DNA of 64,000 nt, from positions 29,358 to 93,357 of the forward strand of contig NZ_JAXMIH010000012.1 in NCBI RefSeq assembly GCF_034366625.1. The letters run 5' to 3'. The translations under genes and the position numbers were made by a program. Source of the stretch: Prosthecobacter sp. Lineage in GTDB: Bacteria > Verrucomicrobiota > Verrucomicrobiia > Verrucomicrobiales > Verrucomicrobiaceae. Positions 113-12,241 of the stretch are shown one piece after another. Under the pieces are notes generated by a model. That model made no database searches, had not been told where the DNA came from, and saw nothing but the letters and a program-made list of their open reading frames with translations. How positions within the stretch are numbered: position 1 is the stretch's first letter; each line of letters begins with the position of its first letter.

Positions 113-1543
113 TCAAGCCTTGTCAGGCTTTTTGAGGCTCAGAGTGAACTGCGTGTGGCTTCCCGCCTCCGTGTCGATCTTCACTTCGCCGCCCATCTGC
201 TGGATCATCCGAAAGCAGATGCTCAACCCCAGGCCCATGCCCTGGCCGACCTGCTTCGTGGTGAAAAAGGGATCAAAAACCTTCGAGAGGTTCTCTTTCG
301 GAATGCCCGTTCCGTTGTCCCTCACGATCAAATCGATGCCGCCCGCTGTTTCCTGCGCCTTGATCAAAATTGTCGGCGATGGTCGGCCCGCCAGCGCATC
401 CAAGCTGTTCTGTACCAGGTTGAGGAAGATTTGAATCAGATAGTTTTCGTCACCCTGGGCGATGACGCCCGCCGGAATCTCATCCACAAGCGTCACCCCA
501 CGATCACTGATCTCCTTCGCGAGCAAACGCAGCGCCTTGCGTGACACGTCCTGCAAATTCACCGGCCGTGCCCCGCGATTTTCAGGATGTGCGAACGTGC
601 GCAGATCAGAAACGATCGCTGCCACACGGTCGATGCCCTCGCCAATGTCCTCGGCGATGGTGTTGAACGCCTCCGCGACCTCAGGAGGCAACGCTTTGCC
701 CTTTTTCTTTAGCAGATACACCGCCGACTTCACGTAGTTCAGCGGGTTGTTGATCTCATGCACGATCCCGGCGCTGAGACGGCCGATGGACGCCAGCTTT
801 TCGCTCTGATCGAGCTGCGCCTCGGTTTCACGCAAACGTTTCAGCGTGGTGGTGAGTTCATCGTTGCGTGCGGCCAATTCCTCACGCTGGTCCTCCACTT
901 TGCAGCGGCTGGCAAATTCACGCAGGCGGATCGCATGATGCTGACGGCTGCCAAAGTAAAGCACCACGCAGTTCAGCAGGATGAAGCCTGTGTTGTTCAC
1001 AAAGATGCCCAGCGCACGCGGATCGTCACTGCCGCTCAGATTCGGCAGTGTGGAGGCCAGATACGCGAGCACGACGAGCCCCAGCGTGAGACCGATTTCG
1101 CGAAACGTCCAATGGAACACAAACGACGTCGCCACGATGCACAACGTCAGCCCGGCATAGTAGCCGGAGCCGGGATCACCACTCAGGTAGATCATGAAAC
1201 AGATCATGAGCGCCGGCAGCAGTGGCAGGATCACCGGATAAGCGCGGCAGTACTTTCTCCCCAAGGACCCATTCAGCGCCAGAAGCAGCGGCACACAGCT
1301 CGCCGCACAGGCCAGCCGCAGCACCAGAAACTCCCAGTAGCGCTCTGGATAGGCCATCCAGTCCAAAAAACTGCACAGCGGCACCAGAATCATCACGAAC
1401 CACGCTCCCATACGGGCATTGCGCAGATTCAACTCCTCCTGCTCTCGTTCGAAACGCCCGGACCGCGGCACTTCGCCACCATGAGCCCGTTGGCAGACGG
1501 GGTCATGCCTGGGAACGGTCATCGAGGAGGAAACCTCTGCCAT
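113..1543 (-). CDS. Membrane-bound sensor histidine kinase (about 6 TM helices, HisKA + HATPase_c)
   Basis: H-box GIVHEINNPL, N-box QIFLNLVQNSLDA, G1 VRDNGTGI, F-box VFDPFFTTK, G2 GMGLGLSI. Six hydrophobic segments and no large periplasmic domain. Start uncertain (1543 or 1522; track gives 1576). Confidence 0.93.
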   Translation of the reverse strand: MAEVSSSMTVPRHDPVCQRAHGGEVPRSGRFEREQEELNLRNARMGAWFVMILVPLCSFLDWMAYPERYWEFLVLRLACAASCVPLLLALNGSLGRKYCRAYPVILPLLPALMICFMIYLSGDPGSGYYAGLTLCIVATSFVFHWTFREIGLTLGLVVLAYLASTLPNLSGSDDPRALGIFVNNTGFILLNCVVLYFGSRQHHAIRLREFASRCKVEDQREELAARNDELTTTLKRLRETEAQLDQSEKLASIGRLSAGIVHEINNPLNYVKSAVYLLKKKGKALPPEVAEAFNTIAEDIGEGIDRVAAIVSDLRTFAHPENRGARPVNLQDVSRKALRLLAKEISDRGVTLVDEIPAGVIAQGDENYLIQIFLNLVQNSLDALAGRPSPTILIKAQETAGGIDLIVRDNGTGIPKENLSKVFDPFFTTKQVGQGMGLGLSICFRMIQQMGGEVKIDTEAGSHTQFTLSLKKPDKA

Positions 1544-1709
1544 GGCTGCGAAAGACATAAATTTTACAAATTCCATAAATTATAACCCTCTTTTGTCATG
1601 CCCGGCAATGGCTAATTACAAAATCCTGACACCTGACTGTCATTTGTCTCACAATCTCCTCAGCCTCGGCTTGGCAAATCTGGCCTGCAACGCCACCATC
1701 CGCCGCCCC

Positions 1710-2831
1710 ATGCGCATCCTCATCGCCATCGACAAGTTCAAAGGCTCCATCCCGGCCGCGGTGGCAGCAAAATCCATCGAAAAAGCCCTCAAACAGGCGA
1801 TCCCCGAAGTCGAATGCGACCTCTGCCCCATCGCCGACGGTGGCGAAGGCACCGCCGAGGCTGTGATCGCCGCCTTGAATGGCGAATGGTGCGAAAACGC
1901 CACCTTTGACGCCCAAAATCGTCCCGTCACTGCCCGCTACGGCCTCGTTCGCGATGAGGGACGGCTCGAAGCTGTCATGGAAATGAGCGCCGCCTCCGGC
2001 CTCGCCATGGTCAGCGACCTCTCCCTCGATCCCGCCACCGCCACCACCCACGGCACCGGTCTGATGCTGCTGGATGCGATCGAGCGCGGCACGGATCGCA
2101 TCGTCATCGGCATCGGCGGCAGCGCCACCAACGACGCAGGCATCGGCATGGCCGCGGCACTCGGCTTCCGTTTTCTCGATGCAGACAGCACGCCGCTTGA
2201 ACCAATCATCTCCCACATGGACAGGCTCGCGAAAATCGAACGCAGTTCGCTCTCAATGCCCGAAATCCTCGTTGCCTGCGACGTGAACAATCCCCTCCTC
2301 GGCCCCCACGGTTGCACCCGCATCTATGGTCCGCAGAAAGGAATACAAGATTTCGGGTTCTTCGAATCCCGCCTCCAACACCTCGCCGACATCATCAAAC
2401 GCGATCTCGGTGTCGATCATCGCGATATTCCGGGAGCTGGAGCCGCCGGTGGCCTTGGCTTCGGCCTCATGAGCTTCTGTGGTGCCAAACTCACCAGCGG
2501 CTTCGATTTGATCGCTGATCTCGTCCATCTGCGCCGCCGCATCGCCGCCGCCGACCTCGTCATCACCGGCGAAGGCCGTCTCGATGCCCAAACCCTCCAC
2601 GGCAAAGGCCCCATGGGCGTCGCCGACATGGCCCGCGAACTCGGCAAATCCGTCGCCGCCTTCGCCGGAGCCATTGAGGCCGAAAACCAACTCCGCACCC
2701 GCTTCGACTTCCTCTGCGCCATCAAACCCAAGGACATGTCCCTCGCCGAAGCCATGCAACGCGGCCCCGAACTCCTTCACAACGCCGTCTTGCAGCAATC
2801 ATCTGCGCTCCTTGTCCTCTTGACTCCTTGA
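1710..2831 (+). CDS. glxK: Glycerate kinase (GlxK/GarK family)
   Basis: MRILIAIDKFKGS, PIADGGEGT, GIGGSATNDAGIG, GAGAAGGLG, VITGEGRLDAQTLHGK. Start reassigned to ATG 1710. Confidence 0.93.
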   Translation: MRILIAIDKFKGSIPAAVAAKSIEKALKQAIPEVECDLCPIADGGEGTAEAVIAALNGEWCENATFDAQNRPVTARYGLVRDEGRLEAVMEMSAASGLAMVSDLSLDPATATTHGTGLMLLDAIERGTDRIVIGIGGSATNDAGIGMAAALGFRFLDADSTPLEPIISHMDRLAKIERSSLSMPEILVACDVNNPLLGPHGCTRIYGPQKGIQDFGFFESRLQHLADIIKRDLGVDHRDIPGAGAAGGLGFGLMSFCGAKLTSGFDLIADLVHLRRRIAAADLVITGEGRLDAQTLHGKGPMGVADMARELGKSVAAFAGAIEAENQLRTRFDFLCAIKPKDMSLAEAMQRGPELLHNAVLQQSSALLVLLTP

Positions 2832-2904
2832 CCACACTTGACCCGCCTTCTCGACCGTGCTCAATGCGCTCTTAACTCATCACTCCTAACAACCAGTTCC
2901 AACC

Positions 2905-3828
2905 ATGAACGCAGTCCTCCTCTTCGCCGGTCAAGGCGCCCAGAAAGTCGGCATGGGCAAAGACCTTGCCGAAGCCTACCCCGCCGTCCGCGACATCTTT
3001 GACCAAGCAAACATTGCCATCGGCCCCTGGCTTAGCAACGTCATGTTCGAAGGCCCGATGGAGGAACTCACCAAAACCAGCCGCTGCCAGCCCGCGCTTT
3101 ACGCCCATGGCCTCGCCATCCTCGAAGTACTGAAAAGCAAAGTGCCATCGCTCAACGTCACCGCCACCGCAGGTCTCTCCCTCGGTGAATTCACCGCGCA
3201 CGCCGCCGCCGGCACCTTCGACTTCGCCACCGGCCTCAATCTCGTCTTCCAACGCGGCAGCTTCATGGAAGAAGCCTGCGAAAACACCAAAGGTGCCATG
3301 CTCGCCCTGCTCGGCGGTGAAGAATCCGCCATCCGCGAACTCGCGCAGGAATGCGATGTCGATGTCGCGAACTTGAACGCCCCCGGACAGATCGTCCTCA
3401 GCGGCAGCGCTGAAGGCATCGCGGCCGCAGCCGCTAAATCGAAGGACAAAGGCATCAAGCGCGCCATTCCCCTGCCCGTCGCCGGTGCTTATCACAGTCG
3501 CCTCATGAAGTCCGCGCAGGACAAGCTTGCCATCGCTCTCGCCGCCGCGCCGATTCAAAGCCCGCGCGTTCCCGTCGTCTGCAACTTCGAGGCCCGCCCC
3601 GTCTCCACGCCCGAGGAAATCCGCGCCACCCTCACCAGCCAGGTCACCGGCAGCGTCCGCTGGGTGGAAAGCATGCAGCACCTCATCGCCGCCGGCCACA
3701 CCACCTTCATCGAACTCGGCCCCGACGCCACCCTCGCCGGCCTCATGGGCAAGATCGACAAATCCGTGAAGGTCATCAGCATCAAAGACGCCGCGTCACT
3801 TGATGCTGCCGTCGCCCAACTGCAGTAA
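2905..3828 (+). CDS. fabD: Malonyl CoA-acyl carrier protein transacylase
   Basis: LFAGQGAQKVGMG, CQPALY, AGLSLGE nucleophile motif, LPVAGAYHSRLM, FIELGP. Confidence 0.96.
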   Translation: MNAVLLFAGQGAQKVGMGKDLAEAYPAVRDIFDQANIAIGPWLSNVMFEGPMEELTKTSRCQPALYAHGLAILEVLKSKVPSLNVTATAGLSLGEFTAHAAAGTFDFATGLNLVFQRGSFMEEACENTKGAMLALLGGEESAIRELAQECDVDVANLNAPGQIVLSGSAEGIAAAAAKSKDKGIKRAIPLPVAGAYHSRLMKSAQDKLAIALAAAPIQSPRVPVVCNFEARPVSTPEEIRATLTSQVTGSVRWVESMQHLIAAGHTTFIELGPDATLAGLMGKIDKSVKVISIKDAASLDAAVAQLQ

Positions 3829-3832
3829 GACC

Positions 3833-4378
3833 ATGAAGCACCTGCTTTACGCTCTGCTGATGCTCACCAGCGTCGCCTCCGCGCTCGAACTGCCCGCCAC
3901 CGACGGCAAGACCCACGATCCTGCCGCCGCTGGCGACAAGAAGGCCGTCGTGCTCTTCTTCGTCTCGCCGTTCTGCTCCACCACGCGGCCTTTCATGCCG
4001 GAGATCAACCAGATCGCCGCCGATTACAGCGACCGCGTCGTCGTTTACCTCGTGCATTCCGATCCCGAGATCACCACCGAGGTCGCCTTGGAGCACGCCA
4101 TCCTCTCCGAGGTCAAAGCCACCGTGCTGCTCGACAAGGAGCAGGCTCTCGCCAAGCAGTTGAAGGCCAAAATCACGCCCGAGGCCGTTGTTCTCTCACC
4201 CAAGGCCGAGACACTCTACCAAGGCCGCATCAACGACCTCTACCTCGGCCCCACCAAGCGCCAGCGTGCCGCCACCACCAAGGATCTGCGCGACGCCCTC
4301 GACGCCATCCTCTCCGGAAAGCCCGTTCCCACGCTGCAACACGAGGCACAGGGCTGCAAAATCAGCAGCATGAAGTGA
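3833..4378 (+). CDS. Secreted redoxin / AhpC-TSA family thioredoxin-fold protein
   Basis: Signal peptide MKHLLYALLMLTSVASA, single Cys (SPFCSTT), ITPEAVV, YQGRIND, C-terminal QGCKI. Confidence 0.8.
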   Translation: MKHLLYALLMLTSVASALELPATDGKTHDPAAAGDKKAVVLFFVSPFCSTTRPFMPEINQIAADYSDRVVVYLVHSDPEITTEVALEHAILSEVKATVLLDKEQALAKQLKAKITPEAVVLSPKAETLYQGRINDLYLGPTKRQRAATTKDLRDALDAILSGKPVPTLQHEAQGCKISSMK

Positions 4379-5681
4379 CGAGGCTCGTTCTTGCGTCCGC
4401 TCTCGCGTTGTGCTTCCTGCGGTGCAGAGCCGTTCCATACTCGCGCAGCTTTTCGGCGCTGCTGCTCCATGAGAATTCCTGGGTGACGCGCTTCAGCGCA
4501 TTGTCAGCGATGGTTTTTCTCAGGGTGTTGTCCTTGAGCAGCCGCAGAACGGCCTCACTCAGCGACGGAGCATCGTCTGCTAGAAGGATGTCCTGCCCGT
4601 TGCGCATGTGAAGCCCCTCCGCGCCCACGGTGGTGCTGACAACTGGCACACCAGCGGCCATGGACTCAAGAATTTTAAGGCGCACCCCACTGCCTGCCCT
4701 CAGAGGGACGACGAGCAGGGCGCACTCACGAAGAGGCGTCAAAACCTCCTCCACCTTGCCGGTCACTTCGATTCCAATGCTTGCGGCAGCAAGTCGCTTC
4801 AGGGCCTCGGGAGGCTCACGGCCAATGACACGAAAGCGGACTTCAGGCATGGTTTCCCGTATGAGAGGCAATATCTTCTCGATGAACCAAAAGGCGGCGT
4901 CCGCATTCGGCGGCCAGTTCATGGAACCAAGGAAAGCGATGCAGGGAGATGGAGATTGCTCAAGCACTGCCGGCGGCAGTCCTCGTGCATCGGGATTGGC
5001 TCCTGCGGGAACGCAGCCAAGGATGTTGTCCAACTTGTAGCTGTCGCGGTGATAAGCGGCGTCTTGATCGGAGATGGTGGTGACACCTTCAAACAAACGG
5101 CACAGCTCAGGCTCGCGGCGCTTCATGCGGCGCGCCATCTCATAAAAAAAGAGGCGCAGGAAAGGATTGCGCTGCAACTCCGACAAGCGCCTCCAGATCA
5201 GGGCTTCGACGTTATGCTGGAGCAGAATGGCGGGAGTGGCGCGCTGTGTTGCCCAGCCATCGAAGACCGGGGCCACAAAGAGCCCGTCCACAATGATGAG
5301 GTCAAAACGGCCGGTCTGTTCAAGTTCACGTGCGCGCTGCGCGAGTTCTTCGCTGTTAAACATGGTCAGAGAGAAGGGCTCTCGGGAGGCGAACAGATTG
5401 CGCAAGATGGGCCAAAGGAAGCTGAAAAACCTGCGCGGAGCCCATTCAGGCATGAGTTGAGAGAAAACGCATTCCCGCTCATGCGCATAGGGAACGGATG
5501 AAGAATAGACAGCCTCCCTACGGCTGTGTGATTCCAGCACATGCACATGACAGTGCTGCATCAGGTGCGTCAGCAGGTGGTACGAATAAATGATACCGCC
5601 GTTGTGGAGTGGCTGGCAGCCTCCCACCCGGACCCATAGGATGCGTAAACGATCAATAGAGGGAGGGGAGGACAAGGTCAT
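4362..5681 (-). CDS. Glycosyltransferase family 4 (GT-B)
   Basis: FLGSMNWPPNADA, VPLRAGSGVRLKILESMAAGVPVVSTTVGAEGL (EX7E), LLQHNVE. Resembles the GT4 sugar transferases of exopolysaccharide/PEP-CTERM-type loci. Confidence 0.92.
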   Translation of the reverse strand: MTLSSPPSIDRLRILWVRVGGCQPLHNGGIIYSYHLLTHLMQHCHVHVLESHSRREAVYSSSVPYAHERECVFSQLMPEWAPRRFFSFLWPILRNLFASREPFSLTMFNSEELAQRARELEQTGRFDLIIVDGLFVAPVFDGWATQRATPAILLQHNVEALIWRRLSELQRNPFLRLFFYEMARRMKRREPELCRLFEGVTTISDQDAAYHRDSYKLDNILGCVPAGANPDARGLPPAVLEQSPSPCIAFLGSMNWPPNADAAFWFIEKILPLIRETMPEVRFRVIGREPPEALKRLAAASIGIEVTGKVEEVLTPLRECALLVVPLRAGSGVRLKILESMAAGVPVVSTTVGAEGLHMRNGQDILLADDAPSLSEAVLRLLKDNTLRKTIADNALKRVTQEFSWSSSAEKLREYGTALHRRKHNARADARTSLVTSCC

Positions 5682-5832: not shown

Positions 5833-6372
5833 TTACCACACCAGCACCTCTTCTTCCGCTTCCTGCGGCTCCTCCCTTTTAACAGTCGTCCAACGGTACA
5901 TAATCGGATATATCGGCCGTTTGTCCTCGAAGAAGTCGGAGACAAAAGGTGGGCCGAAGGTGGTGAACCCAAAATGCTGATAGAGCGACAGCAAGTGCTT
6001 GCCTGTTTTGGTGATCAGGTACTCAGCCTCATTTTTGACCGCGTACTCATTGATCCCCATGCACAAACTCAAGAGATGGACGCCGGCGCTCCCCTTGACG
6101 GTACAGGCGCGTGAAAGCTCAAGACTCAATTTGGCCGACGGCAGCACCAGATCCTTCAATTGGGACTCGCGCATCATTTCAAACTGCCTCACTTCATCGC
6201 TGCGCAGAACCCGCGTGACGCCCAGCACGCTTCCTTTTTTGTCGAAGAGGGCAAAATGATGGGCCGGCTCATCAAATTCATCCAACACGTGGGTTATGGT
6301 CTCGCCGTAGGAAGCGCGACGAAACTTCTCGATGAGTTTTTGATTTGATCTGAATTCAATTTCTCTAACCAT
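5833..6372 (-). CDS. GNAT-fold N-acyl synthase, LuxI/acyl-HSL synthase or FeeM N-acyl amino acid synthase-like
   Basis: FRRASY, LDEFD, LGVTRV and ELSR occur in the order of the LuxI conserved blocks (R..F, D.FD, G..R, E.SR); LYQHFGF near the C-terminus. The LuxI Trp is not evident. Start moved to ATG 6372. Confidence 0.72.
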   Translation of the reverse strand: MVREIEFRSNQKLIEKFRRASYGETITHVLDEFDEPAHHFALFDKKGSVLGVTRVLRSDEVRQFEMMRESQLKDLVLPSAKLSLELSRACTVKGSAGVHLLSLCMGINEYAVKNEAEYLITKTGKHLLSLYQHFGFTTFGPPFVSDFFEDKRPIYPIMYRWTTVKREEPQEAEEEVLVW

Positions 6373-6534
6373 TATTGCCGAAAAACAAGGTGTTCTATGG
6401 TGCTGTAGGAAGTGCCGTTGCCGCTCTCTTGAAACACAAAGTCTGCTGAAACCGGTAGTGCTAAAGATGCAGACCTGAAGCCTTGCGTCAATGTTCACTC
6501 TTGCCAGCCATGCGGCCTATGCGAAAGCTCAAGG

Positions 6535-7929
6535 ATGGGCAGACTGTTGAATCTTATTCGTGCGTCCAAATCGATCCGTCACGCCCAGAGCTTGAGCCGG
6601 CACGACATGCTGGCATTGCAGGAACGGCGTTGGCGCGCACTTGCCCGCCGTGTCTTTGCCACCAGTCCGTTTTACCGGCGCCAACTGGCTGGCATCGACC
6701 TTGACCGGTGTTCCCTGGCAGACATTCCGACACTGACCAAACCGATGCTCGTCGAACATTGGGACGAAATCGTTCCAGACCCACGGTTGCACTGGGCCGC
6801 GCTTGATAAGCATCTGAAGGATCCGAAAAACTGGGGCAGACTGCTTCATGGTCGATGGATGGTGAGCATGACATCAGGAACGTCGGGTGCCGCCATCGCC
6901 ATTCCACACGATATCGCCTCGGTGGACTGGAATCACACGGCCCATGCCACTCGAAATGCACCGTTGCCGGAATCAACCTCGACACCCCGGTTGCCGCTGT
7001 TCAGGAAACGCCCGATAGCGGCGGCGTTCATCTGCTCGTCCGCGCCTTCGGTCTCAGCGGCGCTTCTTGGAACACGTCCGTGGATTGGCTCCCTTTTTTG
7101 CGACTATCAGCCGATCAGTGTCACTGCACCCTGGGAGGAGATCATCGCCCACCTGCACCGGATGAAACCGGACATCCTCATTGGCTATGCCTCGTTGATC
7201 GGACGCCTCGCACAAGCCAAGATCGAAGGGACACTCAAACTGGATTTGCCGTCACCCGGTGGAGCCATATCCACGGGAGGTGACTGCCTCACGCCGGGCA
7301 TTCGGGCTCTTTGCAGGCAAGCCTTTGGCATTGAGCCCATGGATGGCTACGGCTGTGGTGAAACCCTCGGCCTTGCACGCCAATGGGCCGGCATGAACCA
7401 CATGGTTGTGTTTGAAGACCTGGCGGTCTTGGAGGCAGTGGATCAAAACGAACAGGAAACCGGCCCGGATGATCTTTCAGATCACGCCCTCGTCACCCCT
7501 CTGTTCAACACCGCCTTGCCCCTCCTGCGATATCGCCTTGATGATAGGGTGCGCTTCGGTCCGGTTCAAGAGGGGTGGCCGTTCAAAGTCATCCACGAAC
7601 TGAGCGGGCGAAGTGCCCTGACCTACACCTTTCAGGTGCCTGAAAAGCTGGTGTATGTCGGCACCAAGTTCATCGCGGTCATGCAGCACCAGCCCCAGGT
7701 GGCTTGTTACCAGTTCTGTCAAACAGGCCCGAGCTCCATTGAATGCCGCTTTGTCCTTCAACCCGGAGCGGATCAGGCCCAAATTCAGGCCCGGCTGGAC
7801 GCTTCCATACGCCAGTGCCTGGATGAGGGCGGCTGCGGAAAAGTATCGGCCAAAGCCACCTTGGTTTCCCATCTGGAGCCTGACCCACGCACAGGAAAGG
7901 TGGAGCAAAATGTGCCCCTCAAGGCCTAA
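6535..7929 (+). CDS. Phenylacetate-CoA ligase (PaaK)/CapK-like adenylate-forming enzyme, paralog 1
   Basis: SPFYRR, IPTLTK, P-loop MTSGTSG, DGYGCGE, PLLRYRLDD, TGK near the C-terminus. Confidence 0.85.
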   Translation: MGRLLNLIRASKSIRHAQSLSRHDMLALQERRWRALARRVFATSPFYRRQLAGIDLDRCSLADIPTLTKPMLVEHWDEIVPDPRLHWAALDKHLKDPKNWGRLLHGRWMVSMTSGTSGAAIAIPHDIASVDWNHTAHATRNAPLPESTSTPRLPLFRKRPIAAAFICSSAPSVSAALLGTRPWIGSLFCDYQPISVTAPWEEIIAHLHRMKPDILIGYASLIGRLAQAKIEGTLKLDLPSPGGAISTGGDCLTPGIRALCRQAFGIEPMDGYGCGETLGLARQWAGMNHMVVFEDLAVLEAVDQNEQETGPDDLSDHALVTPLFNTALPLLRYRLDDRVRFGPVQEGWPFKVIHELSGRSALTYTFQVPEKLVYVGTKFIAVMQHQPQVACYQFCQTGPSSIECRFVLQPGADQAQIQARLDASIRQCLDEGGCGKVSAKATLVSHLEPDPRTGKVEQNVPLKA

Positions 7930-8215
7930 TGAGCGCTTGGTCATCGGACTGGACCCGCTCAAAGGTTTGAATGGTGACCCGCGCGTCACGGACACCCAGG
8001 TGCGCCAGACCGGCCCCCGCAGTATTGGATATTTGTTTTGTGCCGCTGATGGCATGGATAGTCGCGGCATGGCTGACGAAATCATGGCCAGCATGCGCGC
8101 CTGCCTCGACATGTGTGAGTGCCAGCAGGTGATCTGCACCGTCAGACATGTGCCTTTTTTGGAACCCTCCCCCAATACCGGGAAGGTTGAGCGCTGGGTT
8201 CCATTCAGAGTTTAA
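7925..8215 (+). pseudogene. Free-standing extra copy of the PaaK-like ligase C-terminal domain (remnant, small protein or frameshift extension)
   Basis: Frame +1 relative to paralog 1 reads PNERLVIG...DPRVTDTQVRQTGPRSI...EIMASMRACLDMCECQQVIC...LEPSPNTGKVERWVPFRV. This is colinear with paralog 2 PEERVVVG...DPRVINWQARQTGPASI...EILANMRQHLDSCACHQVTC...IEADPRTGKVNQFVP. No in-frame ATG at its start; TTG at 7937 is possible. Confidence 0.75.
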
Positions 8216-8330
8216 GTCGGAGCAGACCTGTGGAGCATCACTTCTGGCAAATCATTTCCGCCCGGTCCGACCTGTCGAACTCACGCACGACTCCTTTGCA
8301 ACGGCATTTTGAGCCATCACATGTGCGTGA

Positions 8331-8990
8331 TCATGACTTTGTGAGATCAAACACGTAGCCGGCCGCAAAGTACTTCAGGAGGAATCTTTGTTTGAATCCG
8401 GGGGCAACCACATCTTCTAAATAAATTTTCTTCCTTTGATTCAATTTTAATCCCGTCTCGTTAAATGCAGCTCGGTAATGAGCTTGTGTGTGTCTGAAGG
8501 CGAAGGTGGTGAAGTTTTCAAGCAGCTTGATTTCCTTTGTTTTCGTCCGCCAGTGATCAGACCTCATGTCGGAAATAAGAACCCTGCCCCCCACCTTGGT
8601 GAGTCGCGCTATTTCCTTCATGGCTGAGCGCAGGTCTTCCACATGGTTCAAAACCAGGCTGCAGACAACCATGTCGAATGGCTCATCAAGCGGGATGGCG
8701 TTCAAATCCGAGTGCATAAATTTCACACCCAGTCCCGCCGCTTTTTTTCTGGCCACTTCCAGCATCTTTAGCGAAAAATCAACGCCGGTGACCTCCGCAC
8801 CGGCCTCTGCCATGCGGATCGCGTGCCGCCCCGTGCCGCACCCCACATCAAGAATTTTCTTTCCGGCCACATCGAACTCGATCTGCCTGAGGGTCTTCTC
8901 TTCGGCTCTCACCAAGAGGTTGGTGGGCTCATCATACATTTCTGCCCAACGTTGATAAAGCTCATGAACTTCGAGGTTCTGCATTTGCAT
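8331..8990 (-). CDS. Class I SAM-dependent methyltransferase
   Basis: Motif I ILDVGCGTGRH, VTGVDFS, FDMVVCSLVLNHV, GGRVLISD. Confidence 0.93.
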   Translation of the reverse strand: MQMQNLEVHELYQRWAEMYDEPTNLLVRAEEKTLRQIEFDVAGKKILDVGCGTGRHAIRMAEAGAEVTGVDFSLKMLEVARKKAAGLGVKFMHSDLNAIPLDEPFDMVVCSLVLNHVEDLRSAMKEIARLTKVGGRVLISDMRSDHWRTKTKEIKLLENFTTFAFRHTQAHYRAAFNETGLKLNQRKKIYLEDVVAPGFKQRFLLKYFAAGYVFDLTKS

Positions 8991-9115
8991 CCATGCTTAT
9001 GCTATATCGGGAACGCTTTCTCGCTGCAATTTCATTACTAGAGCTGATTTTTGACCAAATCTGATCCCTTCGAGCTTCAGGCTTGCCAGCTTTTGCCTGT
9101 GCGACATCATCCACT

Positions 9116-10528
9116 ATGGGCAGGCTGTTCAACCTCATCAGTGCGTCCAAATCCCTTCGTCACGCCCAGAACCTGAGCCGGCCCGCCATGCTGGCATTGC
9201 AGGAGAGGCGCTGGCGCGGGCTCGCACGCCATGCACTGAAGACGAGTCCGTTTTACCGCCGCCACATGGCGGGCCTTGATCCAGATCGCTGCTCCCTGGA
9301 AGACATCCCGCCTCTGACCAAGTCGATGCTCATCGAAAACTGGGATGAGATCGTGTCAGAACCCTGCCTTCGCCAGGCGGCTCTGGAAAAGCATCTGGAA
9401 AACCCGGCGAACTGGAACCGTCTGCTCCATGGGCGCTGGATGATCAGCCATACGTCTGGAACCACGGGGCAAAGCGTGATCATTCCCCACGACATCGAGT
9501 CGGTGGACTGGCTGCATGCCGTCCATGCCGCGCGCAACGGCCCCGCAAACACCGCCTCCCGCCCGCCGTGCCTGAATCTCTTTCAGCGCAGGCCTCGCCT
9601 CGCGGCATTCATCTGGGGAACGGCGCCCTCCACCTCCTCTGCCTTGTTTCACACACGTCCATGGGTAGGAGCTCTGTTCGGCAGCCATCACGCGATCAAT
9701 TCAGGCGCCGCTTGGGATGACATCTTGCGGCAACTGAACGAGCTCCAGCCTGACATTTTGATCTGCTACGCGTCCATGCTCGAACGTCTGGCGCTCTCCC
9801 AACTCAATGGCAGCCTCAAACTCGCTCTCTCCCATCCGGCTGCCAGTGTTTCGACCGGAGGCGATGTCCTCACTCCGGGCATTCGCGCCCTTTGTCGGCA
9901 GGCATTCAATCAAGAACCTCTCGACGGTTACGGCACCGGTGAATCACCCGCCATCGCACGGCAGTGGCATGGCATGGACCGTCTCATGCTGCTGGAAGAC
10001 CTGACGGCCTTCGAGGCTGTCGATCGTGACGAGAAACCTGTCACAGAGGGCGAAATCTCAGACCATGTGCTGGTGACTCCGCTCATCAACCGGGCGGTGC
10101 CTCTGCTCCGCTATCGCCTCGACGACCGAGTGCGCATCGGCCCCGTCCAGCCGGGCTGGCCCTTCCGCAGCATCGCTGAAATCCTGGGCCGCACCACGAT
10201 GACCTTCGCCTACCATATTCCGGAAGAACGGGTGGTTGTCGGCATGAACGTATTCGGCATCTACGAGACGGACCCCCGCGTCATCAACTGGCAGGCACGT
10301 CAAACAGGTCCAGCCAGCATCGAGTGCGTGTTCACCATCTTTCCAGGAGTCGATGTCGCGAAACTGACGGCCGAAATCCTGGCCAACATGCGCCAGCATC
10401 TGGATTCTTGCGCCTGCCACCAGGTGACATGCGCCGCGAAATGTGTGCCCTCCATCGAGGCCGACCCTCGCACAGGCAAGGTTAATCAATTCGTGCCTTT
10501 GCCTGCCAAGGTGCGCTCCGCCTCGTGA
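9116..10528 (+). CDS. Phenylacetate-CoA ligase (PaaK)/CapK-like adenylate-forming enzyme, paralog 2
   Basis: HTSGTTG P-loop, DGYGTGE, PLLRYRLDD. Colinear with 6535..7929 from MGRL(F/L)NLI onward. Start moved to ATG 9116. Confidence 0.85.
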   Translation: MGRLFNLISASKSLRHAQNLSRPAMLALQERRWRGLARHALKTSPFYRRHMAGLDPDRCSLEDIPPLTKSMLIENWDEIVSEPCLRQAALEKHLENPANWNRLLHGRWMISHTSGTTGQSVIIPHDIESVDWLHAVHAARNGPANTASRPPCLNLFQRRPRLAAFIWGTAPSTSSALFHTRPWVGALFGSHHAINSGAAWDDILRQLNELQPDILICYASMLERLALSQLNGSLKLALSHPAASVSTGGDVLTPGIRALCRQAFNQEPLDGYGTGESPAIARQWHGMDRLMLLEDLTAFEAVDRDEKPVTEGEISDHVLVTPLINRAVPLLRYRLDDRVRIGPVQPGWPFRSIAEILGRTTMTFAYHIPEERVVVGMNVFGIYETDPRVINWQARQTGPASIECVFTIFPGVDVAKLTAEILANMRQHLDSCACHQVTCAAKCVPSIEADPRTGKVNQFVPLPAKVRSAS

Positions 10529-10547
10529 CATCAGCGAGCTTCTTCGC

Positions 10548-12143
10548 CTACTTCCTCTTGCCCTTCCCTTTCTTCTTCGCCTCCGGCTTCGGCCCCGCCT
10601 GCGCGACGAATTCTTGCTCCAGTTTCTCCCAGCGCTCCGCCATCGCTTTCACCCGCTCCGGTTCCTTCGTTGCAAGGTTGTTCGACTCCGCACGATCCGT
10701 GCTGAGCTTGTAAAGCTCCCACGCATCGCCGTTGTCGGCGGCGCTGACGATCTTCCAGTCGCCTTCACGCAGCGCACGATTGCCAGAGTGATGCCAAAAC
10801 AGGAAATCGCGGCTGAGCGTCTCATCCTTCGCAAAAGCAGGCAGCAGACTGCGCCCTGGATACGGCGGCGCATTCTCCGGCATCACCGGCTTAGCGTCAC
10901 CCGCCAACGCGAGCAATGTCGGCACCACGTCGATCACATGACCCGGCGTGTGCCTCAGTTCACCCTTCGCGGCAATGCCCTGCGGCCAGTGCGCGATGAA
11001 CGGCGTGCTGATGCCGCCTTCATGCACCCAGATCTTGTGCCGACGAAACGGCGTGTTCGACACCGTCGAGCCTCCGGGCCCGAGGCAGAGATACGAAGCC
11101 GCTGCACCCATCGGCGCGGCCTTGTCGTGCCCCAGGCCACGCACCATCACCTCCGCGCTCGCGCCGTTGTCGGAGAGTAACAGAATGAGCGTATCCTCGA
11201 AGACATTCATCGCCCGCAGTTGCGCCAGCACGCGTCCCACTTCCTGATCGAGTCGGTCGATCATCGCCGCGTGAATCGCCTGTTTCGTAGCCTGAAACTG
11301 TTTCTGCTCATCCGTCAGACTCTCCCACGGCACCGCATGCCGTGTTTCACCGGCACCGAGGATTTCCAGATCGCTCTCCTTGCCGCTCGGTGCGGTGATT
11401 TGCGGTTCAGGATCAGACAATGTCGTGTCCACGAGCCCCATCCGCTTCTGCCGCTCGAATCGCGCCGCCCGCGTCGTCGGCCAGCCTTTCAGGTACGTGT
11501 CCTTGTACTTCGCGATGTCCTCCGGCAGCGCCTGAATCGGGAAATGCGGTGCGGTGAAGGCCAGGTAGGTGAAGAATGGCGTGCCTGCATGCTGCTGCGC
11601 ATGCTCTTTGAGAAAATCGATCGCATGCTGTGCCATCGCCGTGCTCGAATACCACGCACCCTCCGGCACCGGCAGCGGCTGGTCATCCAGCTCGTGCCTC
11701 TTTGGATGGAAGTGATTGTCCTGCTGCGCCACGTAGTAGGAACGCGTGAAGCCCCCGTCCGCCACCACCCGCGGCGCATTGCCCACATGCCACTTGCCCG
11801 AGTGGTAGCTGCGATAGCCCAGTTCCGACAGCCGTTGCGGCAGCGTGCGCACCCAGGCCGGAAACTTGCCATACTGCGGGTCCATCCCGATCTGCTGCGC
11901 ATAATGTCCCGTCATCAGCACGCTCCGCGTCGGCCAGCAGCGCGCCGTGTTGTAAAACTGCGTGAACCGCAGCCCGCCCGCCGCCAGCTTGTCCAGATTC
12001 GGCGTCGCAATCTCACTGCCATAACATCCGAGATCGGAGTAGCCGAGATCATCCGCCAGGATGATCAGGAAGTTGGGTTTTGCGGGAGCGGCGTGCAGCG
12101 TGATGCAGGCGAGAAGGAGAAAGGACAGTGGCAGGCGGATCAT
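10548..12143 (-). CDS. Arylsulfatase (sulfatase family S1), secreted
   Basis: KPNFLIILADDLGYSD, formylglycine motif CWPTR, SGKWH, LSDNG, HEGGISTP. Signal peptide from ATG 12143. Confidence 0.95.
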   Translation of the reverse strand: MIRLPLSFLLLACITLHAAPAKPNFLIILADDLGYSDLGCYGSEIATPNLDKLAAGGLRFTQFYNTARCWPTRSVLMTGHYAQQIGMDPQYGKFPAWVRTLPQRLSELGYRSYHSGKWHVGNAPRVVADGGFTRSYYVAQQDNHFHPKRHELDDQPLPVPEGAWYSSTAMAQHAIDFLKEHAQQHAGTPFFTYLAFTAPHFPIQALPEDIAKYKDTYLKGWPTTRAARFERQKRMGLVDTTLSDPEPQITAPSGKESDLEILGAGETRHAVPWESLTDEQKQFQATKQAIHAAMIDRLDQEVGRVLAQLRAMNVFEDTLILLLSDNGASAEVMVRGLGHDKAAPMGAAASYLCLGPGGSTVSNTPFRRHKIWVHEGGISTPFIAHWPQGIAAKGELRHTPGHVIDVVPTLLALAGDAKPVMPENAPPYPGRSLLPAFAKDETLSRDFLFWHHSGNRALREGDWKIVSAADNGDAWELYKLSTDRAESNNLATKEPERVKAMAERWEKLEQEFVAQAGPKPEAKKKGKGKRK

Positions 12144-12241
12144 GGAACCATCCAAAACGATGCATCGAATGAATTCATGCCCGAAAAGCGAGAGGAACGC
12201 GAACACTCCTTGTATGAGTGGCGGCGCGTTCTGCTCCGGCA

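Follow-up and report, generated by a model that had tools for sequence, protein, structure and literature searches.

The closest described systems are the PaaK-family ligases, represented by PaaK1 and PaaK2 of Burkholderia cenocepacia (PDB 2Y27, 2Y4N and 2Y4O), together with BT_0428 (4R1L), NatL2 (6TM4) and AjiA1 (6WUQ). Their fold is common to the two complete ligases of the locus studied here, P1 and P2, and to B, the parent of a gene piece that we call B'. HMMER connects the PaaK family with P1, P2 and B at an E value of ~1e-6, although the solved PaaKs are just 16-20% identical to the ligases of the locus. Compared with a PaaK ligase, B' covers most of the C-terminal cap and retains its GK lysine motif, but the adenylation domain, the hinge and the first cap strand are missing. 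In the window, meaning the whole 64,000-nucleotide stretch of Prosthecobacter DNA that was analysed, B' occupies positions 7925-8215. We consider it likely that this piece is the 3' remnant of a third, B-type ligase gene, left by a deletion or a cassette exchange and carrying no selected function.

P1 and P2 are 57% identical to each other and both fall below the Pfam thresholds. They give weak NCBIfam matches to PaaK, F390-synthetase-related and DVU_1553 ligases, none of them near the curated cut-offs. For P1, an AlphaFold2 model that drew on 49 homologs reached a pLDDT of 91, and its best fold matches were PaaK1/PaaK2, BT_0428, NatL2 and AjiA1 (Foldseek E ~1e-21, probability 1.0). Because of these matches, P1 and P2 are assigned to the PaaK-like members of the ANL superfamily. 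Orthologs of P1 (69-84% identical) stop at the same codon position, one residue past ...VP(L/F)(K/R), and 3' of them lies unrelated spacer DNA with no cap. Across its two domains P2 shares 68-70% identity with its A-type counterparts in G007, G076, G061 and G071; these sit between genes d and e, and P2 is displaced from that usual place. The gene caller may use a TTG at 9083 as the start of P2.

The features of the locus are collected in Table 1, in which d stands for a thioredoxin-like gene, e for GNAT, f for sulfatase, MT for methyltransferase and GT for glycosyltransferase. Gene e, an N-acyl-synthase-like GNAT gene beside the variable slot, has the same position in G007, G061, G056, G001, G071 and G076; it is 82-86% identical to the first five of these copies and 71% identical to that of G076. 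Gene f is 84-88% identical across all the loci compared. A Pfam search of the B' piece and of two antisense ORFs (7477-8175 and 7919-8149) gave no match, and scanning of the forward strand between P1 and MT for terminators and promoters returned nothing informative.

Table 1. Features of the locus (window coordinates) and gene orders in the genomes and contigs compared
Feature	Position	Strand	Description
Gene e	5833..6498	-	GNAT-like, Pfam Acetyltransf_5; divergent from P1; left border of variable slot, conserved
P1	6535..7929	+	Complete PaaK-like (ANL superfamily) ligase by modelled fold, 464 aa; own C-terminal cap; stop at native position
ATG of B' frame	7910..7912	+	In-frame; overlaps P1 codons 459-460; candidate start, 101-aa product
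CCC_C	7915..7918	+	Proposed +1 slip site; P461 of P1
P1/B' junction	7924..7933	.	At or a few bases from the P1 stop codon (7927-7929)
B' (likely remnant)	7925..8215	+	Final 96 codons and stop of a B-type PaaK-like ligase gene (~residues 369-464)
MT	8331..8990	-	SAM-dependent methyltransferase, 219 aa; convergent with B'; Pfam Methyltransf_31/11/25
P2	9116..10528	+	Complete PaaK-like ligase, A-type
Gene f	10548..12206	-	Sulfatase, Pfam Sulfatase; right border of variable slot, conserved
G007 and G076 (MAGs)			Gene order d-A-e-B-MT-f
Logan contig L083			Gene order d-A-e-B-f
G061			Gene order d-A-e-P1-f
G071			Gene order d-A-GT-e-P1-f
G056 and G001			Gene order d-e-P1-f
JGI metagenome contig L080			Gene order e-P1-MT
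Present genome			Gene order d-GT-e-P1-B'-MT-P2-f

An earlier, sequence-only reading had described an open +1 frame with cap homology behind the end of P1, and the sequence confirms it. The 3' end of P1 reads GTG CCC CTC AAG GCC TAA (7912-7929), and in the +1 frame no stop occurs between 7655 and the one at 8213-8215. From 7925 it encodes 96 residues that begin with PNERLVIG (PNERLVIGLDPLKG) and end with TGKVERWVPFRV. The piece aligned by BLASTP, with no gaps, to residues 380-473 of P2 (42/94 identical, 45%, E 3e-25) and to residues 369-464 of P1 (34/96 identical, 35%, E 6e-15); it is thus closer to P2 than to P1, as had been claimed. Judged by these scores, the homology of B' to ligase caps is far beyond chance. 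The catalytic lysine motif TGKV is kept. All 36 genus homologs share the glycine and lysine of this motif, K455 does not vary among the 49 aligned sequences, and B' keeps all the residues that are invariant or nearly invariant in the wider family.

The same reading took the piece for an intact copy of the domain that starts exactly at the domain boundary, and neither description survives comparison with the complete ligases. Both the P1 model and a HMMER alignment of P2 with PaaK1 (2Y27) place the end of the N-domain at the hinge G358-R359, which is invariant in 49 homologs, whereas the homology of B' begins only at residue 369 and is secure only from ~371-372. In the P1 model the first cap strand spans residues 363-368 (TYTFQV) and the second spans 370-375; with homology beginning at 369, the hinge and cap strand 1 are therefore absent from B'. 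The residues that the +1 frame encodes at the positions of the hinge and strand 1 are unrelated, out-of-frame sequence of P1. When B' was modelled alone with the same homologs, residues 26-80 were confident (pLDDT ~90), and the first ~25 residues had no secondary structure, with pLDDT values of 44 and 59 for the first two ten-residue blocks. Thus B' has the homology and the lysine motif of a cap domain but neither the hinge with the first strand nor a link to an adenylation (N-terminal) domain, as its reading frame differs from that of P1, which is complete.

Where the piece came from is indicated by its relatives. Homologs of B' were searched for in 41 and then 13 further Prosthecobacter genomes. 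Its closest matches are the last 96 residues of full-length, 464-aa genes on contigs G007:C19 and G076:C330 (62-64% identical), and the B gene of the Logan metagenome contig L083 is 61% identical. In a maximum-likelihood tree of 38 cap domains, B' joins the B-type genes with support of 100/98, P2 falls in the sister A-type clade, and P1 falls in a distant clade with its own orthologs. As it is only 35-45% identical to P1 and P2, B' is not, by this sequence comparison, a recent copy of either. Its position tells the same story. A full-length B ortholog occupies the syntenic position in G007, G076 and L083, and the MT gene that follows B' is 67-71% identical to the orthologs lying directly 3' of intact B in G007 and G076. 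Taken together, the gene orders and the orthologous MT indicate that P1 and B are alternative occupants of a single slot between e and f. The remnant of a third paralog, one of three options offered by the sequence-only reading, is thus the one borne out by the relatives. That reading leaned instead toward function or a recent origin; the relatives hold an intact third gene, an outcome it had itself named as speaking against that lean.

The missing part of the gene is not found elsewhere in the assembly. When all of its contigs were searched with an intact B protein, just P2, P1, B' and five distant PaaK-like matches came back, with no B-type N-domain among them. Metagenome scans for closer relatives of B', made with the single sequence and with a three-sequence alignment, found none; of two scans of genome contigs, one found nothing and the other gave only the two B-type MAG loci. 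A chimeric query, in which the P1 N-domain was joined to B' and matches were scored over residues 369-464, was used to look for a closer full-length B-type protein and retrieved only that of G007 (63%). We also considered the N-domain of P1 as the old B N-domain with a swapped-in cap. This was rejected, as B resembles the P1 N-domain (57%) no more than other types do, and a cap swap in P1 is also contradicted by its full-length orthologs, which share 69-84% identity with it.

Alignment of the P1 ortholog 3' ends shows P1-like DNA continuing through CTCAAGG, and alignment with the B genes of G007 and G076 shows B-like DNA to be secure from the CGC at 7934; the join therefore lies within 7924-7933, at the stop codon of P1 or just after it. 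At the other end, the stop codon of B' and the next bases (T[AG]AGTC) align with their counterparts in the B genes. L079, the closest relative of P1, resembles the window weakly over ~15 nt beyond its stop; this was judged not significant and indicates only that the join may fall just after, rather than just before, the stop codon of P1. Two features of the piece stand as counterpoints to a remnant. The break lies close to, not at, the domain border, where a random deletion would hit only occasionally, and there is no stop or indel in the 96 homologous codons.

With this in mind, we propose the following history for the remnant. The slot between e and f carries differing cassettes across Prosthecobacter (P1, B, P1 with MT, and B with MT), and P1 and a B-MT cassette would first have come side by side in the present lineage. 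A deletion or illegitimate recombination would then have joined the end of P1 to approximately codon 369 of B. In its simplest form this would have been a single event of ~1.1-1.2 kb that took the spacer and B codons 1-368, and with them the B promoter, its start, the whole adenylation domain, the hinge and the first cap strand, leaving P1, MT and P2 intact. The homology of B', its clade, its synteny, its uniqueness, its missing parts and the absence of a B N-domain from the assembly are observations, whereas the sequence of events and the loss of function are inferred. B' lacks parental residues 1-368, which comprise the whole adenylation domain and are indispensable for the activity of the parent, and it is most likely not needed. 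The locus itself appears from these comparisons to be one that is rearranged more than once, since P2 and GT have also moved here. A related event is seen at the same locus in G063, where a deletion has joined e and a P1 ortholog, each without its 5' part (residues 160-463 of the P1 ortholog are left). This P1 remnant of 304 codons is still open though certainly dead.

Constraint on the piece was assessed by several comparisons, each limited to 96 codons; according to the control chosen, p lay anywhere between 0.0025 and 0.7. Compared with the two B genes, B' has dN/dS values of 0.24 and 0.35, which remain far short of 1; the corresponding controls gave 0.14-0.18 for B7 versus B76 and 0.07-0.16 for P2 and MT in the same three genomes (MT 0.13-0.14). 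On the branch of the present genome in a three-taxon comparison, raw N/S is 1.79 for B' versus 0.87-1.06 for the controls (Fisher p ~0.07). Changes specific to B' fall at codon positions 1/2/3 in numbers of 15/18/23, indistinguishable from uniform (p 0.42). Second positions take 32% of the changes in B'. Their share is smaller on the B7/B76 branches, at 7% (p=0.0025), in P2, at 11% and 17% (p 0.01 and 0.02 against B'), and in the pooled controls, at 19% (p=0.03); that of MT, 28%, is similar to B' (not significant). The tree branch of B' measures 0.40 versus 0.19 for P2 in the sister clade. At columns that are at least 90% conserved, B' departs at 3/17 and each full-length sequence at no more than one. 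At 16 positions it has a residue that none of 36 full-length homologs shows (the runner-up has 10 such positions), and its unusual substitutions include L379P, in a helix of the model, and E403G. These patterns suggest mildly relaxed constraint over part of the B' branch, which over 96 codons is not decisive.

Based upon the clean boundary and the lack of internal stops, the sequence-only reading favoured function or a recent origin, but the boundary is not clean and an open frame is easily kept. Of simulated B-type caps, 55% still had no stop after 20 random substitutions, and 27% had none after 50. Since 27% of the simulated neutral copies are open, and so is the dead remnant of G063, the open frame of B' carries little weight for function. 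We attribute its survival to a frame that is short and GC-rich and to a truncation that is probably not very old.

Three other explanations were weighed against the remnant. A programmed +1 frameshift at CCC_C (7915-7918), also put forward by the sequence-only reading, would yield a two-cap P1 (...EQNVP-SRPNERLVIG...). There is indeed a run of four Cs three codons before the stop of P1, with a +1 frame open into the cap and a GGTGGAG motif 9 nt upstream, and the arrangement is reminiscent of prfB, where a slippery run also lies near a stop codon with a purine-rich, Shine-Dalgarno-like motif upstream. In prfB this motif stands ~3 nt from the slip site. The P1 site differs in the 9-nt distance of its motif, in having no poor or stop codon in the A site, and in an arrangement that is not conserved in P1 orthologs. 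These orthologs end at the same codon without a downstream cap, so there is nothing for a slip site to conserve, and CCCC is present in only some of them. The A-site codon CUC is the commonest leucine codon (40.4 per 1000), hence no pause would be expected, and CCC_C itself is common (P1 contains 4, and 22 occur across 32 long ORFs in the window). No structured stimulator is evident. The product would be a complete cap followed by a second, hinge-less cap, for which we know of no precedent. The probability of frameshifting is accordingly close to negligible. An assembly artefact, in which the P1/B' junction would be a chimeric join of a co-occurring P1 strain and a B-MT strain, is very improbable. 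It would draw on the presence of both cassette types at the same slot in the genus and on the fact that many genomes of the genus are MAGs. However, P1-type and B-type sequences share just a few bases at the junction, and a k-mer mis-join needs a long exact overlap, which makes a chimera unlikely. In addition, the locus lies on contig C12, which is 138 kb long; the assembly comprises 6.6 Mb in 30 contigs, with a completeness of 96.7% and 1.5% contamination, and synteny is conserved on both flanks.

The third explanation holds that B' is translated, from ATG 7910 coupled to P1 or from TTG 7937, into a product of 92-101 aa that acts in trans on P1/P2, e.g. as an alternative cap, a decoy or a regulator. 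The case for it begins with the open frame, the GK motif and the retention of all the residues conserved across the family, to which may be added a domain core (B' residues 26-80) modelled at pLDDT ~90 and a dN/dS below 1. Low dN/dS is nevertheless what would be expected of a sequence that once belonged to an intact gene. In addition, B' has neither hinge nor strand 1, the model shows its N-terminal ~25 residues as disordered, and the unusual substitutions include a proline in a helix. As for its translation, an AAGGTGG (7897-7903) stands at a workable distance before ATG 7910, and an ATG with a Shine-Dalgarno-like motif overlapping the end of P1 makes coupled translation possible; the motif is, however, merely the GKVE codons of P1, and most nearby genes have no Shine-Dalgarno motif. 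The gene caller predicted a 92-aa protein (P0010) starting at TTG 7937-7939, the start suggested by the sequence-only reading, which had overlooked the in-frame ATG upstream at 7910-7912. Judging from these start codons, low-level translation from ATG 7910 or TTG 7937 is possible. Against a selected trans-acting cap, neither the 105 genomes of the genus nor two very large libraries of proteins yielded a second example. In the 105 Prosthecobacter genomes there is no other free-standing cap and no other case of the arrangement with P1 that had been proposed for a search of relatives. The open frames that hold the other matches there are never shorter than 311 aa, and apart from the P1 remnant of G063 they measure 464-633 aa. 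Among 5.8 billion proteins, with candidates restricted to 55-175 aa, the sole match was the genome's own 92-aa call; a HMMER filter-only search of 1.84 billion cluster representatives returned this call and one 478-aa ligase. Looking up the exact sequence of the 92-aa call returned no record. A literature search for natural trans-acting ANL caps found nothing pertinent. Furthermore, P1, P2 and a distant PaaK-like paralog all carry their own caps, so there is no cap-less partner among the ligases examined. The distant paralog, on contig C4, had been the one candidate for this role, as its alignment ended at 369, and was rejected because it has its own C-terminal domain. With no second example in the genomes and libraries searched, we regard the function of a trans-acting cap as improbable.

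A narrower version, in which B' was co-opted as a P1-coupled, ~11 kDa, hinge-less cap that docks in trans on P1/P2 with its catalytic lysine, is more doubtful again. If true, it would alter the adenylation or transfer step of P1/P2, and B' would represent an ANL cap that is naturally split or exchangeable, seen soon after gene truncation gave rise to it. More generally, if a small product is made and active, B' would be an unusual, naturally split ANL enzyme.

On our preferred reading of B' as a truncated remnant, the 92-aa gene call is better flagged as a PaaK-like ligase fragment than as a small protein, and 'open frame' and 'domain-sized' are not to be taken as evidence of function. The locus also draws attention to a recombination-prone Prosthecobacter slot beside a GNAT-like gene, at which ligase and methyltransferase cassettes (P1 or B, with or without MT) are exchanged, and which may interest work on the cluster's putative acyl-amide or glycan-decoration product.

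In conclusion, B' fits an ordinary category, that of truncated gene remnants at variable bacterial loci. As in other such remnants, an intact ortholog stands at the same site in relatives, and the gene has lost its promoter, its start and ~80% of its coding sequence. The junction lies directly against a neighbour that is intact, and the piece occurs in a single genome. Its substitutions hint, though not decisively, at relaxed constraint. Unlike the typical truncated remnant, B' has a frame that is still open and a break that falls ~10 residues inside the domain border; it therefore looks almost like a whole domain and may be taken, wrongly, for a small gene.

All loci compared share a conserved gene pair in which a PaaK-like ligase gene diverges from a GNAT (Acetyltransf_5) gene. 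This suggests that the two products serve a common pathway of acyl activation and subsequent N-acyl transfer. The comparison of the slot bounded by the GNAT-like gene (e) and the sulfatase gene (f) drew on window positions 5833-12206 and loci L016, L072-L076, L080 (a JGI metagenome contig) and L083 (a Logan contig). Among the Prosthecobacter loci compared, its contents differ: the ligase P1 or the third ligase type, B, occupies it, either alone or with a methyltransferase gene (MT). In the window, the slot holds P1, the probable 3′ remnant of B (B′), MT and the A-type ligase P2. The A/P2-type ligase usually has the thioredoxin-like gene (d) and e as its neighbours, but MT and f flank it in this genome.

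Features at the ligase locus and at related loci
Feature	Location	Strand	Remark
GT4 glycosyltransferase	4362-5681		only in this genome and G071 (loci compared)
GNAT (Acetyltransf_5) gene	5833-6498	-	divergent from P1
PaaK-like ligase P1	6535-7929	+	divergent from GNAT gene
Fused truncated genes	L032 (G063:C42), about 1270-2427		5′-truncated GNAT gene joined directly to 5′-truncated P1 ortholog
Distant PaaK-like paralog	L082 (G000:C4), 1465-3156	-	26% identity to B-type

The longest P2 ORF starts at a TTG at 9083 (region 9083-9118), but its 11-residue extension is probably not real, since the ATG at 9116 (MGRLFNL...) agrees with where all homologs start. The distant paralog was called at 563 aa, with about 100 extra N-terminal residues.

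Within the conserved GKVEQN codons of P1 (7897-7912, GGA AAG GTG GAG CAA AAT G), an SD-like AAGGTGG is followed by an out-of-frame ATG. This start context is a chance by-product of those codons. At the protein level, the GKVEQN residues are retained in most P1-type and related ligases, and their codons could therefore create similar accidental internal starts.

The fusion in G063 is the product of a deletion, and retains only residues 123-204 of the GNAT gene and residues 160-463 of the P1 ortholog (80% identity, without stops). This P1 copy is an independent and clearly inactive remnant at the same locus as B′, and its frame is still open.
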